The notes under the pieces were generated by a model that saw only the letters and a list, made by a program, of their open reading frames with translations, had not been told where the DNA came from and did not search any database. From a virus (Duplodnaviria; Caudoviricetes): 64,000 nt of DNA. This document shows, one piece after another, positions 2,605-30,155 of the stretch. Positions within the stretch are counted from its first letter, which is position 1; the number at the start of each line of letters is the position of its first letter. The stretch spans positions 1 through 64,000 of IMG/VR virus record IMGVR_UViG_3300028591_000183. One strand, written 5' to 3'. The position numbers and the translations under genes were made by a program.

Positions 2605-3741
2605 ATGTCAAATATTGATGTAATTGCATTTGCTTTGGCTAATGGCTATACAGATGAAAGTATGGCGGGTGGCGGTGCTATTAAGGGTAAAAACTGCCAA
2701 ATCAAATCTAAGACCGCAATCGAAGGTGGCACAAGAATAACCTTTGTGTGGTATCTCGATAATGGAACAGAAAAAACTACTACCCTTGATGTAATGAATG
2801 GTACAGATGGTGAAGATGGCAAGGATGGTTCGCAGGTAGAAGTTACTCCTATCCAAAAGACGGGTACTAAAGTAGGTGAAATAACAGTTGACGGACATAA
2901 GTACACACTCTATGCACCCGCAGGTGGTGGTGGCGGTGACGCTGTTCTTTCAGATGATTTAACAACGGCTATTTCTGTAGGCGGTATTGATAGTGGTGTG
3001 ACTTATGAAGCAGGAACACCACTTGAAACTTTGCTTAGAGATTTGTTAGAGCCTACACTTTTCCCGACTCTTACAAATCCTTCTGCTTCTCTGACAGCTA
3101 CAGGCGCAAAGTTGCTTGAAAAAGGTGCTACATTGGCAACTACGTTCACTATAGCGTTTAACAGAGGAACAATCAATCCGCAATATACGGCAGAGTCAAG
3201 TTATCGAAGCGGAGAAGCAACAGGATATTCTCTTAATGGTGGAACTGCACAGGCAGGAAACACCTTTAGCGTGACAGTAACAGAAGCACAGAAAACATAT
3301 CAAGGTAATGTCGCTTATGCACAGGGCGTACAGCCTAAAGATTCTAAGGGAAAGGATTATCAATCACCACTTCCCGCAGGTAGCGTGAATACTAACACGA
3401 TAAATTATGAGTTCGTAGATGCACTTTGGGCTAATACAGGTAATATTGCTACTGTAGCTAAATTAGCACTTGTAAGTAAGAGTGCCAAACAGAAAGATTT
3501 TGCTTTCCCTGCGCAGACAGTAGCTAATCCCGAGATATTCGACGTACCTGCAAGTTGGAATGTAACCGCCGTACAGGTAAAGAATGACTTGTCGGGTGCT
3601 TATGAGGATGCAATTTCTCAATTTACTGTAACGGATGTTACACATGATGATGCTTCGGGAACTAGCGTAGCTTATAAGAGATACACCTTTAATCTTGGGT
3701 ATGATACAGGCGCAAGGTCTGTAAGGCTCAAATGGAATTGA
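2605..3741 (+). CDS. tail or virion-associated protein
   Basis: 378 aa, G/T/A-rich, short GTDGEDGKDG repeat, strong RBS. Confidence 0.65.
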   Translation: MSNIDVIAFALANGYTDESMAGGGAIKGKNCQIKSKTAIEGGTRITFVWYLDNGTEKTTTLDVMNGTDGEDGKDGSQVEVTPIQKTGTKVGEITVDGHKYTLYAPAGGGGGDAVLSDDLTTAISVGGIDSGVTYEAGTPLETLLRDLLEPTLFPTLTNPSASLTATGAKLLEKGATLATTFTIAFNRGTINPQYTAESSYRSGEATGYSLNGGTAQAGNTFSVTVTEAQKTYQGNVAYAQGVQPKDSKGKDYQSPLPAGSVNTNTINYEFVDALWANTGNIATVAKLALVSKSAKQKDFAFPAQTVANPEIFDVPASWNVTAVQVKNDLSGAYEDAISQFTVTDVTHDDASGTSVAYKRYTFNLGYDTGARSVRLKWN

Positions 3742-3753
3742 TGAAAGGAGAGA

Positions 3754-5442
3754 ATGAAAATGGCTAGAAGTAAGGGTTCAGCTAATCTTTCCGCTTCGCT
3801 TGAAGTATTGGCAGGTGCGCCACTTGACGCTAGGGATATAGTTCAGACAAAAGCGGATTTAACAGCGCAGGACAGCTTTCCTTATAAATACATAGGAATG
3901 GAAGTCTATGTTGTTGCTGAAAATAAGAAATATAGGCTTCTTGGAAATGACCCTACAAATATAGAGAATTGGCAGGAAGTAGGTGCAGGTGGTGGTGGAA
4001 CGTCTGATTATGCAGACTTGTCTAACAAGCCATCTATTGAAAACGTTACTCTTAGCGGAAACAAGTCTGCTTCTGATTTAGGACTTGCTAAAATAACTGA
4101 TTTAGCAGACTTTATTACTAAGACAGTTGATGACCTTGTAAATTATTACAAGAAAACGGAAACCTACACCAAGGGCGAAGTAGATGCTATTGTAACTGCA
4201 ATAAAGAATAGCAGGTTTGAAGTGGTTGCCACACTTCCTACTTCTGATATCAAGACTAATGTTATCTATCTTGTACCATCTACATCATCTAAAACAAAGA
4301 ATGTTAAGGATGAATATATCAACCTTGATGGAACAAGTGCAGGATGGGAACAGATAGGAAGTACGTCTGTTGACCTCTCAGATTATGTAACCAAGACAGA
4401 ACTTAATACTGCTCTTGCAGATTACACTACTACAACTGATTTAACGGCTCTTTTAGCAGGTAAACAGGATAAGATGCAGTATTCTACCCTTCCTACTCCT
4501 TCGGCTGAATTAGAGGGCAAAATTGTTGAATATACAGGTGCTACATTTAGTTGGCTTGTTCATGGATACTTTTACGAGTGTGTTTCCGATGGAGAGGATA
4601 CTCCCTCATACTCATGGCAACAGACAAATGTTCAACCTAATAGCGGTGGCGGTAGCTCATACACCGCAGGTGATGGAATTGACATAACCAATGATGTAAT
4701 CTCAACCAAGCAATCCGAAGAAGGTGATATAGACGAGATTATAGACGTATATCCCACAGCAGGAAACCTTGTGTCTATTGTAAATGCCTTTAATAAAGGG
4801 GATATTTACAGCACAGAAGAGAGGATGATTGGTCAGTATATTGATGGAAAGCCGTTATATCAGAAGGTTATTGAGGGTACATTAGATAGTGCTAGTGGTG
4901 CAACCACTACTATTAGTGTATCTAGCTTAAATGTTGATAAATGTGTTTTCTGTGATGGCATGATTACAAAAGGCACAACAACATTATTTACACCATATCT
5001 TAATGACACTTTGTATTATGTATGTGTTTGCTATTTTGATGATAGCAACCATGCAGTAAAGATAGTTTCTAAAAATATGGAGAGTTGTCCTTATAAAATT
5101 ATTCTCAAATACACCAAGACTACCGATACCGCAATCTCAATCGGAGAAGCAACAGAATACTCAACAGACGAGAAGGTGGTAGGAACTTGGATTGACGGTC
5201 GTCCAATTTATCAGAGAACTTATGAACAAGAAATTGCATTAGCTCCTGATACTTGGGTAGCTTCTTCTTTAGTGGCAACCAATGTAGATAAAGTAATTAA
5301 CGGTATTGGATATAATGCAGGTTCTTCTATTGATTGTCTGCTAGGTGGAATTGTTAATGGATACTTCGGCTTTAACTCCACTAGGTCACAGAGTATAACA
5401 ATAAATGCTTTTACAGTTCAATACCTTAAAACTACAACATAA
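3754..5442 (+). CDS. tail fibre/adhesin with two C-terminal YST.E..IG.WIDG.PLYQ domains
   Basis: 562 aa with Gly linkers and a repeated beta-domain. Confidence 0.7.
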   Translation: MKMARSKGSANLSASLEVLAGAPLDARDIVQTKADLTAQDSFPYKYIGMEVYVVAENKKYRLLGNDPTNIENWQEVGAGGGGTSDYADLSNKPSIENVTLSGNKSASDLGLAKITDLADFITKTVDDLVNYYKKTETYTKGEVDAIVTAIKNSRFEVVATLPTSDIKTNVIYLVPSTSSKTKNVKDEYINLDGTSAGWEQIGSTSVDLSDYVTKTELNTALADYTTTTDLTALLAGKQDKMQYSTLPTPSAELEGKIVEYTGATFSWLVHGYFYECVSDGEDTPSYSWQQTNVQPNSGGGSSYTAGDGIDITNDVISTKQSEEGDIDEIIDVYPTAGNLVSIVNAFNKGDIYSTEERMIGQYIDGKPLYQKVIEGTLDSASGATTTISVSSLNVDKCVFCDGMITKGTTTLFTPYLNDTLYYVCVCYFDDSNHAVKIVSKNMESCPYKIILKYTKTTDTAISIGEATEYSTDEKVVGTWIDGRPIYQRTYEQEIALAPDTWVASSLVATNVDKVINGIGYNAGSSIDCLLGGIVNGYFGFNSTRSQSITINAFTVQYLKTTT

Positions 5443-13694: not shown

Positions 13695-13874
13695 TTTTAT
13701 TAGACACATGAATGATGCTCAGTTGGCTAATGTATTGTTGGATACCATCACGGCAAATGCAGATTATTGTGAGGAATATCGCATAGATTTGGGTGGCTAT
13801 ATCAGCTTTAATGTCGTTGATGAAGTACCGATTAAATGGGATTTGAAATATTATAAGAAAGGATATATTTGGAT

Positions 13875-14939
13875 ATGGCAGGTGGCAATTTTGATAGTGC
13901 AAAGAATGGCAAGAATGATGAGTTTTATACACAGCTCACAGATGTATCAAAGGAGCTGATGCACTACAAGGAGCATTTCAAGGATAAAATTGTTCTGTGT
14001 AACTGTGATGACCCTACATGGTCTGCGTTTTGGAAGTATTTCCATCTGAATTTCTCGGCTTTGGGATTAAAGAAACTGATTTCCACACATTATGACCGCA
14101 ATAATCCCACCTATAAAATGGTTTATGAGGGTGGTGATGATAATAATATCGAAGTGGGTGTAATTACACCACTTGAAGGTAATGGTGATTTCAGAAATCA
14201 GGAATGTATTGACCTCTTAAAAGAGAGCGACATTGTAGTAACAAATCCACCATTCTCTCTGTTTAGAGAATATATCGCACAGTTAATGGAATACGAAAAG
14301 AAATTTATCGTATGGAGCAATACAAATGCTATAACATATAAAGAATTTTTCCCTTTACTGAAAGATGGTAAAGTGTGGGCTGGATATTTGTTTAACAGCA
14401 CTTGCGTTTTTAGGGTTGGTGATGGATATAAATATGATGAAAAAGTTACTCAGCAGATAAATGATGGATATAAATACGGAAAAGTTCCGAGTATTGCAAC
14501 ATTTACTAATTTAGATATAAAGAAACGCCATGAGAATTTAATTCTTTGGAAGAATTATACACCTGAAGAATATTCTGATTACGATAATTATGACGCTATC
14601 AATGTTAATAAAGTGACAGATATTCCTGTTGATTATGATGGAATATTGGGTGTGCCTATTACTTTCCTTGATAAGTATAATCCTGAACAGTTTGAAATTG
14701 TTGGATTGGTGAATGGCAAAGATAATTTAGCGGGTATTAAAACCACTCGTGATTATTCTGCATTTTCTGAAACTCGACAAGATTCAACAAAAACAGGAGC
14801 AAGTGGTAAAAAAATCAATGGTAATCCTGTTATAAAAGGCAAACCAACCAAAGGTAATTATTTTACTTTTGGTTCTGAAGTCGTATATTCAGCGTATGCT
14901 CGAATCTTTATCCGTCTAAAGCATGGAAGAAAGGCGTAG
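13875..14939 (+). CDS. adenine-specific DNA methyltransferase, EcoRI family
   Basis: KNDEFYT, CNCDDP and VTNPPFSLFREY motifs. Confidence 0.9.
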   Translation: MAGGNFDSAKNGKNDEFYTQLTDVSKELMHYKEHFKDKIVLCNCDDPTWSAFWKYFHLNFSALGLKKLISTHYDRNNPTYKMVYEGGDDNNIEVGVITPLEGNGDFRNQECIDLLKESDIVVTNPPFSLFREYIAQLMEYEKKFIVWSNTNAITYKEFFPLLKDGKVWAGYLFNSTCVFRVGDGYKYDEKVTQQINDGYKYGKVPSIATFTNLDIKKRHENLILWKNYTPEEYSDYDNYDAINVNKVTDIPVDYDGILGVPITFLDKYNPEQFEIVGLVNGKDNLAGIKTTRDYSAFSETRQDSTKTGASGKKINGNPVIKGKPTKGNYFTFGSEVVYSAYARIFIRLKHGRKA

Positions 14940-23109: not shown

Positions 23110-23344
23110 CTAGAAATATTTGTCTGTATCATTGGTGGGTTGTTACCCATCAATGTATTAATCCTTTCAGAAAGAAAACAAAATTATAAAGTTTCCGTGC
23201 CTAGCCATACCCAACTAAGTCAATTAACATGATGGCTCTAATAGCACATACTATAAAGAACAGGACAATATAGGACAATACAGGAAAAGACAGGACAAGA
23301 CAATATATAAAAAATTAACAACTCACCTGTGATGCAGACAAATA

Positions 23345-23378
23345 AAAAGCGATTAAGTTCGCACCTTAACCGCTTTTA
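23345..23378. terminator. hairpin terminator
   Basis: AAAAGCG(A)TTAAG...CTTAACCGCTTTT. Confidence 0.6.
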
Positions 23379-23456
23379 GGAGTTGGAATTACTATCAGTA
23401 TGATTTCTAACTCCGATTCTAACACATTATTTCAAATTAGAAAAGGAGAAAAAATT

Positions 23457-24128
23457 ATGGCAACAAAGAAAACAGAAAGTAACGTATTTGAGATTAAACC
23501 CTTGGATATTCAGAAGTTATCAATTCGTATTAAGGGTGACTCGCCATTGATTGTTCACGCTTGGAGCGAAAAAGCAAAAAAACAAATTCTTGATAAACAG
23601 ATGAAGATTACAAAAACTTCTGCGAAAGAAGCACGAAATCCATATCGAGAGTTTATTGATTCAATGTATTGGCTTACGCCAAAGCCCGAAGCTACACCCG
23701 ATGCGTTTGCAGAAGCCGTAAAGAATGGCGCAAAGTGGGGTTTTCCTGTGACGGGAATTAAGCAAAGTGCTAATTCAACAGCATACAGACTTGGTTGGAC
23801 TCCTAATCAAACCATGCTTAGATGCGCTTATTTTATAGAGAGTGAGTATGGAGAATTGTTTGAAATCAAGGGTTCAATTCCCGAAATACGTGAAGATAAC
23901 GTCACAATCGGCATGGGAACTGCGGATTTGCGTTATCGTGCAGAATATAAAGATTGGTATGCAGATATTGTTGTAAGTTATAACAGGTCGGGTGCATTAA
24001 CACTTGAACAGATACTTAACATAATCAACGCAGGTGGCTATTCGTGCGGACTTGGCGAATGGAGAGCCGAAAAAGACGGTATTTTTGGGCGTTATCATAT
24101 TGAGTCTAGCAACACTATTAGCGATTAA
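23457..24128 (+). CDS. Cas7/RAMP-like RNA-binding protein; candidate effector of the adjacent pentamer array
   Basis: N-terminal strand IKGDSPLIVH, DLRYRAEY..W, and a C-terminal Gly-rich loop GLGEWRAEKDGIFGRY. The fold is inferred, not searched. Confidence 0.7.
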   Translation: MATKKTESNVFEIKPLDIQKLSIRIKGDSPLIVHAWSEKAKKQILDKQMKITKTSAKEARNPYREFIDSMYWLTPKPEATPDAFAEAVKNGAKWGFPVTGIKQSANSTAYRLGWTPNQTMLRCAYFIESEYGELFEIKGSIPEIREDNVTIGMGTADLRYRAEYKDWYADIVVSYNRSGALTLEQILNIINAGGYSCGLGEWRAEKDGIFGRYHIESSNTISD

Positions 24129-24135
24129 GCGATTT

Positions 24136-24568
24136 GGCAGTTTTGGTATGGTTCTCTATGGTGGGTTTTGTTATGGTTACGTTGGTTTTGGCAGTTATGG
24201 TGCGTTATGTTGCGTTAAGGAAAGGTGCGCTATGGCGGGATTTGGTAAGGCAGTTAAGGCGAGGTGCGGTTAGGTATGGTAGTTTCGGGTTTGTTAAGTT
24301 GAGGTATGGTGAGTTATGGCAGTTACGGCACGTTAAGTTCAGTTGAGGTAAGTTCAGTTTCGGTGAGGTTTGTTATGGTATGGCAGTTTTGGTGGGTCAT
24401 GTTATGGCAGGGTCTTGTACGGTCTTGTTAGGTTTGTTGGGATAAGGCAGTTAAGGTTAGGTGAGTCGAGGTTTGTTTAGTCGAGGTTAGGTGAGTTGTT
24501 GCAGTTATGGTGTGTTTAGGTAGATTTGGGTAAGTTATGATTAGGTCAGTTTAGGCAAGGCGTGGTTC
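24136..24568 (+). ncRNA. array of seven GGCA-delimited units of G(G/T)Y-NN pentamers; candidate guide RNAs
   Basis: Units start at 24136, 24190, 24249, 24318, 24382, 24446 and 24500, with lengths 4+5n and 81 pentamers in total. Confidence 0.8.
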
Positions 24569-24595
24569 TTATTAAATTTAAAAAGGAGTTTGGAT

Positions 24596-25090
24596 ATGGT
24601 TTATTCATGGAAAACATTTCAATATTCTGTTTCTGCTGATGTTGCAGGAAAAGAATTTGAAAAGATTGAAAAAAAATACGGGAAAGTTACATCGGAACTG
24701 CTTTTGCAAAACGCAGAACCTATAGAATCCCCACTACATGAGCTTTTCGAGTGGGATGATGCTGTAGCAGGTCGTAAATACCGACTTTCACAGGCTACAA
24801 ATATTATCATCAATCTTGCTGTAGAGGTTGAAAAGGAACAGAAACCTAAGAAAATCCGTGCGTATTATAACGTGAGTGATACCGAGAAAAAGGGACGTTT
24901 TATTAACGCTGAAACAGCATTTTCAAATCCCGATACAAAAGAAATTATTCTGAAAAGAGCTTATCGTGAAATGCAATCTTTTGTGCAGAAATACGAGAAC
25001 CTTACAGAATTTGCGCCTGTATTTAAGGCGATAGAATCAATCAAAAAAGACATATTAGGAGATGAAGCAGATGAACAACTTGAAGATTGA
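24596..25090 (+). CDS. conserved phage protein directly downstream of the array
   Basis: AAGGAG RBS; SPLHELFEWDDAVAGRKYRLSQA motif. Confidence 0.75.
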   Translation: MVYSWKTFQYSVSADVAGKEFEKIEKKYGKVTSELLLQNAEPIESPLHELFEWDDAVAGRKYRLSQATNIIINLAVEVEKEQKPKKIRAYYNVSDTEKKGRFINAETAFSNPDTKEIILKRAYREMQSFVQKYENLTEFAPVFKAIESIKKDILGDEADEQLED

Positions 25091-29306: not shown

Positions 29307-30155
29307 ATGGGGCAACAAAAACAGGTCAAGAGGTACTATTGGTTGAAACTTAAGGAAGAATTTTTTCAAGATAAAGAAGTTAAGAAATTAAGGAAGATAG
29401 CAGGTGGAGATACCTATACTGTTATCTATTTGAAGCTCATGTTATTGAGTCTTAAAAGTGATGGAAGGTTGTATTTTGATGGTGTTGAAGAAACTTTCCA
29501 TGAGGAACTTGCCCTTGAAATAGACGAAGATGCAGAGAACGTAAGGATTACCCTTATGTATCTTGAAAAGATGGGCTTAGTTCAGATGAAAGATGATGAC
29601 GAGATGTATCTCACACAGATGGACTCATTGATTCTATCTGAAAGTGAATCTGCACAGAGGGTTCGTAAACATAGAGCCAAGATGAAACAGATAGAACTTG
29701 GTAACGGACAACAGTTAGCTGAAATCGGGATGAATGATGAACCCGAAAGCCCCATCGAAGCACCGCAACCTGTACTTGAAGAACCAAGTAACGATGATGT
29801 AACAAACAGTAACACATATACAGAGATAGATACAGAAGCAGAGAAAAAAGCAGAAGAAGAAAAGAAAAAGAAGAAGGAAACAAAACATATCTTTGGTGAG
29901 TATTCTCATGTACGTTTGACGGATACAGAGTATGAACGTCTTTGTAGTGACTATGGAGAGGATGCTGTAAAAGACGGAATAGACAACGTAGACAAGTATT
30001 GTCAAATGTCGGGCAGGACGTATAAGGATTACAACCTTGTACTTCGCAGTTGGGGTATTAAATCACCCAAATTAAAGAAACCCATGAATGCATTACCGCC
30101 GAAGGAAGATGATGATACGCCAAGTGATGAATGGACTAGACATTTTGAGGATTAA
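29307..30155 (+). CDS. phage replisome organizer / replication initiator
   Basis: YYWLKLKEEFF....KKLRKIAGGDTYTVIYLKLML. Confidence 0.9.
   Translation: MGQQKQVKRYYWLKLKEEFFQDKEVKKLRKIAGGDTYTVIYLKLMLLSLKSDGRLYFDGVEETFHEELALEIDEDAENVRITLMYLEKMGLVQMKDDDEMYLTQMDSLILSESESAQRVRKHRAKMKQIELGNGQQLAEIGMNDEPESPIEAPQPVLEEPSNDDVTNSNTYTEIDTEAEKKAEEEKKKKKETKHIFGEYSHVRLTDTEYERLCSDYGEDAVKDGIDNVDKYCQMSGRTYKDYNLVLRSWGIKSPKLKKPMNALPPKEDDDTPSDEWTRHFED

Follow-up and report, generated by a model that had tools for sequence, protein, structure and literature searches.

A probable phage-borne VIPR operon with a staggered array of seven guides and three predicted mobile-element targets

The closest described relatives of the locus considered here are the VIPR (Viral Interference Programmable Repeat) systems, a form of RNA-guided gene silencing first described in 2026 (bioRxiv 10.64898/2026.04.26.720920). 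They are composed of a small RAMP protein, Vipr, and of guide RNAs (vrRNAs) with 9–16 YNNGG repeats; double-stranded DNA (dsDNA) is read by the NN pairs, one base being skipped after each pair, and binding represses transcription (10.64898/2026.04.26.720920). The model is the type II system of Escherichia phage SUSP1 (10.64898/2026.04.26.720920, 10.64898/2026.04.26.720927), and the experiments to date concern E. coli and Pseudomonas systems. The locus under study lies at positions 23457–25090 of a 64,000-nucleotide stretch of viral DNA (Caudoviricetes; positions 1 to 64,000 of the IMG/VR record IMGVR_UViG_3300028591_000183), which is the whole stretch analysed and is called the window below. 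Judging from homology, structural models and guide matches, it is very probably a phage-borne VIPR operon, with the order vipr, staggered vrRNA array and winged-helix-like accessory gene, whose function is predicted. It belongs to the already described VIPR systems and does not represent a new kind of system. What the analysis adds is a description of the GGCA punctuation of the arrays throughout its clade, evidence of selection on the NN positions, and three predicted targets, one of them in a conjugative element.

The cryo-EM structure of SUSP1 Vipr contains one protomer per repeat, with contacts made by K33 and by H17, R138, D177, W178 and R179, the latter five holding the GGY motif (10.64898/2026.04.26.720927). 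Concerning diversity, seven types and six families of vap accessory genes have been reported, as well as arrays interspersed with hammerheads and 'staggered arrays' in which the overlap is 1 nt (10.64898/2026.04.26.720920), and the types differ by accessory genes and array architecture. Type II, the clade of SUSP1 and P. fulva, has a conserved structured 3′ tail on the vrRNAs and the accessory gene vap1. Phage-satellite competition was shown in a third paper, and non-canonical triplets were reported in a fourth. Self-targets are absent from the published VIPRs, a match of 80% of the NN bases being the threshold used in the literature. The features found by computation in the present locus are homology to Vipr, a RAMP fold, vrRNAs made of pentamers, hypervariable NN pairs, a 1-nt skip, no self-target and an adjacent vap-like gene. 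They are presented below, and the coordinates are collected in Table 1.

The relationship to SUSP1 Vipr was apparent from two profile comparisons. The family profile of the protein encoded by the first gene, made of 93 homologs, matched the PDB chain 36pp_D ('SUSP1 Vipr protein') with an expect value (E) of 1.2e-13, and hhalign against the SUSP1 gene product gave 98.5% and E 2e-15 over the region from thumb to G-loop. In this protein the thumb hairpin spans approximately residues 143–164, with R161 in it, and the G-loop is G198-L-G-E201-W202-R203. The alignment places GLGEWR (E201-W202-R203) on GVGDWR of SUSP1 (D177/W178/R179) and the Arg of Y-R161 on the thumb R138; R161 and R203 are invariant among the 93 homologs. 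The N-terminal stretch with H17 and K33 of SUSP1 lies outside the aligned region, where the conserved H34 and K39 are candidates only.

The AlphaFold2 (AF2) model of Vipr (pLDDT 93.8, pTM 0.85) is consistent with a minimal RAMP fold, composed of an RRM core, a thumb and a glycine-rich loop. With this model, Foldseek retrieved 102 PDB chains at E ≤ 1e-3, headed by Csm3/Cas7 of type III and type VII complexes (best matches at E ~1e-7 and TM ~0.5). The protein matches phrog_4652, while the Pfam scan assigned it no family. The family is large, with 4725 proteins at E ≤ 1e-3 in a metagenome protein set and 2541 representatives at 50% identity. A preliminary description of the locus, made from the letters alone, had taken this open reading frame (ORF) for a Cas7/RAMP-like gene with a Gly-rich C-terminal loop. 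The ORF and the loop are as described there, and the assignment is borne out both by the homology to SUSP1 Vipr and by the fold comparison with Cas7/Csm3/RAMP proteins that had been proposed as a check, in which Csm3/Cas7 came out on top. The recently reported viral system to which it pointed does exist, with a RAMP protein, alternating GGY/NN RNAs, one protomer per pentamer and a non-contiguous NN guide (10.64898/2026.04.26.720920, 10.64898/2026.04.26.720927).

The array follows directly. As had been described, the 433 nt of 24137–24569 parse exactly into seven units of 54, 59, 69, 64, 64, 54 and 69 nt, each with a 4-nt mark plus 10–13 pentamers, which are read here in the register of the literature (triplet, then NN). 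GGCA occurs at 24136, 24190, 24249, 24318, 24382 and 24446, and TGCA at 24500, ahead of unit 7. The existence of a GGCA/TGCA mark that shifts the phase thus stood, but its positions had to be corrected, and the G that comes after the mark turned out to open the next triplet. The period-5 power calculated by unit was 4.72, compared to 0.71 ± 0.17 (maximum 1.49) in 500 dinucleotide-preserving shuffles, i.e. about 23 standard deviations above; in the tract taken whole it was only 0.62, because the phase shifts at every boundary. Among 81 triplets, GGT was found 32 times, GTT 29, GGC 6 and others 13, which gives the consensus G-(G/T)-Y. A search of the array against Rfam revealed no family, hammerhead included, and no structured element. 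The RNA may be processed at the GGCA marks.

The remaining claims of the preliminary description were the membership of the locus in VIPR, with seven guides and the accessory gene, which is supported by the homology, the conserved architecture and the decodable guides, and a series of features thought to be new (staggered arrays, variant triplets, accessory genes), which had already been published. So, the GTT-rich variant is real, in the form G-(G/T)-Y, but not new, as non-canonical triplets are on record, and a second base of G or T counts as what the VIPR papers call a 'related consensus'. The GGCA-punctuated multi-guide organisation is present too, and corresponds to the published 'staggered array' with 1-nt overlap, as far as the legend of fig. 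S18 describes it: there, the positions of the vrRNAs overlap by 1 nt, the end of one being the start of the next (10.64898/2026.04.26.720920). Compared with that legend alone, the likeness lies in the GGCAG pentamer, which shares its last G with the next triplet and so overlaps it by 1 nt.

Table 1. Positions of the predicted VIPR genes, array and guides in the window, with the predicted guide targets.
Feature	Position	Strand	Description
vipr gene	23457..24128	+	223-aa Vipr, RAMP/Cas7-like; AAGGAG ribosome-binding site 23443-23448
Staggered vrRNA array	24136..24569	+	seven G-(G/T)-Y/NN pentamer units parted by GGCA marks, phase -1 each
Guide 1	24140..24189	+	10 pentamers; predicted target, antisense and in register: (K/N)(Q/H)YINPMDIN of PrgI/VirB4-type conjugation ATPase
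Guide 2	24194..24248	+	11 pentamers; no target found
Guide 3	24253..24317	+	13 pentamers; predicted target, sense and in register: KEAYIRRFNEM(E/D) of phage Rha-family regulatory genes
Guide 4	24322..24381	+	12 pentamers; no target found
Guide 5	24386..24445	+	12 pentamers; in-phase internal GGCAG at 24405
Guide 6	24450..24499	+	10 pentamers
Guide 7	24504..24568	+	12-13 pentamers; predicted target, from the start codon: MVYSWK(M/I)Y(Q/H)Y(K/N)VS, accessory-protein N-terminus
Accessory (vap-like) gene	24596..25090	+	164 aa; ATG at 24596; AAGGAG ribosome-binding site 24583-24588

The architecture is conserved in 85 related loci with Vipr identities of 48–87%, namely four close loci from ENA assemblies, one from a metagenome-assembled genome (MAG) of Clostridia and 80 from IMG/VR. 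All 85 contain a pentamer array on the same strand directly 3′ of vipr, and a homolog of the accessory gene comes after the array wherever the flank is long enough. Therefore, in the survey of homologues that had been suggested as a check, the periodic array and the downstream gene co-occur with vipr in every related locus examined. The phase shifts are of +4 modulo 5 (equivalent to −1) in 444 of 487 cases, the spacing of GGCAG peaks at 49, 54, 59, 64, 69 and 74 nt (9–14 pentamers), and GGCA is 97–98% conserved over 246 boundaries. GTY makes up 41% of the triplets both here and in the closest relative, with a clade mean of 20%. The shared architecture yields 380 unique guides. When guides shared with relatives were compared, the NN bases differed at 0/20 and 1/20 positions versus 6/30 and 9/30 for the triplet bases (P = 0.037 and 0.031), which suggests that selection in shared guides acts on the NN positions and not on the triplets.

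Vipr and the accessory protein each have homologs in 33 phage records, which are identical for the two proteins (phages of Gordonia and Mycobacterium, plus one cyanophage). One of them, Gordonia phage UmaThurman (NC_031249.1), bears at 3113–3466 a coding sequence (CDS) annotated as gp40, 'hypothetical protein', which consists of arrayed GGY/NN pentamers punctuated by GGCAG and lies between gp39 (Vipr homolog) and gp41 (accessory homolog); gp40 is very likely not protein-coding. Two variations of the arrangement were seen among the 85 loci. The relative with 87% Vipr identity (L001) has an array of 11 units, with a non-periodic insert of about 55 nt containing a terminator-like hairpin (4755–4810) after the first unit. 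Six other loci (L027, L030, L040, L061, L065 and L082) have a second same-strand pentamer array 5′ of vipr, as in SUSP1, which the window does not have.

Concerning the accessory protein, its AF2 model (pLDDT 94.1) suggests a winged-helix-like N-terminal domain followed by a helical C-terminus. Residues 1–116 resemble nucleic-acid-binding domains of the winged-helix class (VIA Z ≤ 6.6, all such matches being winged-helix), and Foldseek with this model gave no match at E ≤ 1e-3. The protein matches phrog_15946, and no family was assigned to it in the Pfam scan. Its profile showed no similarity to SUSP1 vap1 (0.2% probability).

Compared to SUSP1, the locus has in common a homologous Vipr with the D/E-W-R motif in the G-loop, the thumb Arg and the RAMP fold; the 10–13 tandem pentamers of constant triplet and variable NN; the location in a phage; and the single accessory gene. 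It shares with VIPR in general the targets in codon register read with a 1-nt skip, the absence of self-targets and, as predicted here, the direction of the guides towards other mobile elements, rival VIPR loci included. The differences are also clear. Here vipr is followed by the array and then by the accessory gene, while the order in SUSP1 is vrRNA1, vipr, vap1, vrRNA2-4; the units abut with a GGCA mark and have no structured 3′ tail; the second base of the triplet is G or T, unlike SUSP1; and the predicted targets include a conjugative element, a class that is not mentioned in the VIPR preprints examined. Placement in type II was considered and rejected: in addition to the missing 3′ tail, the accessory gene is unlike vap1 and the gene order unlike that of SUSP1, and for the latter two reasons the locus was not put in that type.

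The likeness to Cas7/Csm3 of type III and type VII systems resides in the RRM core, the thumb hairpin, the Gly-rich loop and the oligomerisation on a guide RNA at a fixed period; however, the identity is 10–15%, the period here is 5 nt and not 6, and the guide is non-contiguous. A CRISPR-Cas system of type III was also rejected, because no array other than that of 5-nt period is present and the neighbours are DUF1351, ERF, cell-wall hydrolase and HTH (helix-turn-helix) genes. No CRISPR repeat-spacer array adjoins vipr; no screen for adjacent cas genes was made.

The guides were searched as gapped NNx patterns under the published rule of reading two bases and skipping one. When the 380 guides of the clade were run, after masking of the arrays, on some 570 kb of DNA from related phages, a skip of 1 gave six matches with a per-guide E < 1e-3, in comparison with none for skips of 0 and 2, one for a skip of 3 and none for shuffled guides. 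The top three of these skip-1 matches were in codon register and fell within the vipr or vap gene of another locus. In a second local set, a skip of 1 gave six matches against 0, 0 and 0 for the controls, two of the six being dependent on how the set was chosen. A composition test placed 237 of the 380 guides in sense codon register, with 63 expected; this result is no more than suggestive, as other factors may bias the NN composition. When the seven guides were run on the 74-kb contig of their own phage, none scored above the shuffled guides, with best matches of 67–80%; the only one at 80% was guide 1 (16/20), which equals the best score of a shuffled guide.

For three of the seven guides (1, 3 and 7), other mobile elements contain genes that match in codon register and are taken here as the predicted targets. 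With guide 1, 41 exact gapped matches were obtained in the genome_contigs collection, and 39 of them are in one family of genes of about 800 aa, in one frame, antisense, at KQYINPMDIN; the exact full-length scan of IMG/VR gave no match. The Pfam domains of this family are P-loop_TraG and PrgI, and nearly all its members are in Clostridia (Butyrivibrio, Lachnospiraceae and others). In a representative target locus, that of Butyrivibrio hungatei, the gene has as neighbours TrbL/VirB6, NlpC/P60, CD1107-like and relaxase genes; with this neighbourhood of transfer genes, it can be said that the site belongs to a conjugative element. A guide of L001 has the same NN bases as guide 1 (20/20) but departs from it at 6 of 30 triplet bases.

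For guide 3, the core of ten pentamers had one exact match in IMG/VR and five in genome_contigs, the latter all in Clostridia MAGs. Five of the six are in Rha genes (PF09669, E 3.7e-35), and 23–25 of the 26 NN bases of the guide are matched at the rha sites, wobble bases being variable. The guides of three other VIPR phages match adjacent positions of the same rha genes. The exact full-length scan of IMG/VR was negative for guide 3, as was a search allowing 3 mismatches in 164 genomes from the family to which the host MAG of L005 belongs; it should be considered that exact full-length matching is too strict for guides whose best known targets reach 23–25/26. In the IMG/VR contig with the rha match (52% GC) the other six guides have no match, and a VIPR locus is absent. 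A separate observation is that a guide of a close relative matches a conserved box of a tyrosine integrase on a contig shared with one of those rha genes. Neither Rha nor conjugative elements are mentioned as targets in the VIPR preprints examined.

Guide 7 matched 23/26 bases at the start of the vap gene of L001, sense and in register (local per-guide E 2.5e-5), in comparison with 20/26 on the vap gene of its own phage; exact scans of IMG/VR and genome_contigs were negative. The predicted target of this guide would be a rival VIPR phage, at its accessory gene.

The results with the other guides were less informative. Guide 2 had no exact match in IMG/VR and none at ≥80% in the local sets. Guide 4 had no exact match in IMG/VR, and the two matches of its 20-base core in genome_contigs (Flavobacterium and Bacteroides) were rejected as chance, since they fall in unrelated genes and frames. 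The best match of guide 5 on its own contig was 16/24 (the public collections were not searched with this guide). Guide 6 had no exact match in IMG/VR; one metagenome match, in register and within an ORF of a contig with 25% GC, is indistinguishable from chance. In the opposite direction, an 8-pentamer guide of the IMG/VR phage L053 (54% Vipr identity) matches 16/16 bases of the phage studied here at 30057–30079, in codon register and near the end of the replisome-organiser gene (PF09681), with a per-guide E of 5e-4 that is borderline given the 380 guides tested.

As in the homologous SUSP1 system, for which the structure is solved, Vipr would bind the RNA with one protomer per pentamer, each protomer gripping one G-(G/T)-Y triplet and leaving its NN pair exposed. 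The 10–13 NN pairs in series would read dsDNA, with one base skipped after each pair, and the binding would silence transcription. The GGCA marks would delimit the seven guides, either through RNA cleavage or simply because the protein filament loses its 5-nt register there. The likely role of the system would be the silencing of competing mobile elements of the same host. A more specific proposal, tentative and somewhat short of probable, is that VIPR would be used against a conjugative element through guide 1 and the VirB4-type ATPase, with tail-less guides delimited purely by the −1 register break at GGCA.

Several points weigh against this interpretation of the locus. With 41% GTY, the triplet is G-(G/T)-Y instead of strict GGY, the vrRNA units lack the SUSP1-type 3′ tail, and the accessory gene has no sequence relation to vap1. 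For four of the seven guides no convincing target emerged. With guides 1 and 3 alike, the many matches come from homologous genes within a single family, so that each set counts as approximately one independent event, and a 20-base gapped pattern is expected to find about 1–2 chance matches in genome_contigs, as seen with guide 4. On the other hand, it is reasonable to consider the targets of guides 1 and 3 unlikely to be due to chance, because they are restricted to Clostridia, lie in mobile-element genes and are in codon register.

These points bear on the alternatives in different ways. The tail-less vrRNAs, the deviating triplet and an accessory family other than vap1 would also be expected of a VIPR relative acting by a mechanism unlike that of SUSP1, such as RNA targeting, an effect exerted by the accessory protein or a single long unprocessed transcript. 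The variation of accessory genes and array architecture among the published types, and the excess of guides in sense codon register, which is compatible also with a link to mRNA, go in the same direction. Such a mechanism seems nonetheless improbable. Guide 1 is antisense and guides 3 and 7 are sense, as would be expected if DNA is targeted on either strand; the GGY-contacting residues of SUSP1 that fall in the aligned stretch (R138, D177, W178 and R179) have counterparts in this Vipr; and the accessory protein, by its model, resembles a nucleic-acid-binding winged helix and not an enzyme. If the external targets were coincidental, given that each family is about one event and that chance matches do occur, the array could regulate genes of its own phage by partial matches. 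Guide 7 would be the example, as its best match on the own contig begins exactly at the ATG of the adjacent gene. Yet this match of 20/26 is within the range of the shuffled guides (maximum 20) and under the 80% threshold of the literature, and the guide fits the allele of the relative better. This, together with the confinement of the matches of guides 1 and 3 to mobile-element genes of Clostridia in codon register, and with the fact that guides of other VIPR phages reach the same rha genes, makes self-regulation very improbable.

It is hardly conceivable that the tract is a protein-coding repeat rich in Gly, Val and Trp, or a DNA repeat such as iterons, instead of a guide array. Short ORFs do cross it, and the equivalent tract of UmaThurman stands in GenBank as a CDS, but a reading frame is not maintainable with a 5-nt period and shifts of −1. 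Across the 85 loci no ORF is kept, while the triplet/NN pattern and the GGCA marks are, and the tract is always found with a Vipr homolog.

As a VIPR operon, the locus is of interest for being a compact natural array, staggered and tail-less, with seven decodable guides and three concrete predicted targets (the conjugation ATPase, rha and a rival accessory gene). It makes testable the skip-1 code outside Proteobacteria, the delimitation of tail-less guides and the use of VIPR by phages against conjugative elements. If the assignment of guide 1 is true, the gene shut off would be that of a VirB4-type transfer ATPase, carried by conjugative elements with a wide distribution among gut and rumen Clostridia, Butyrivibrio and Lachnospiraceae included. 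The Vipr clade concerned is large, with phages of gut and rumen Clostridia, and reaches the phages of Gordonia and Mycobacterium.

Some minor observations concern the surroundings of the operon. Just 5′ of the ribosome-binding site of vipr, at 23345–23377, there is a terminator-like hairpin with a 13-bp stem flanked by runs of A and T, which suggests that the vipr-array-vap unit may begin a new transcript; no convincing promoter was identified ahead of the unit. Further upstream, the minus strand of 23252–23310 shows approximately nine GTY/NN pentamers, of low complexity, in which NN alternates between TT and CT with a period of 10. A minus-strand tract in this position is absent from all 85 related loci; the one seen here may be a guide that has decayed, or a set of operator-like repeats. 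Far from the locus, within the structural-gene region of the phage, positions 13869–14939 contain a gene for an EcoRI-type adenine methyltransferase (PF13651, E 3e-120).

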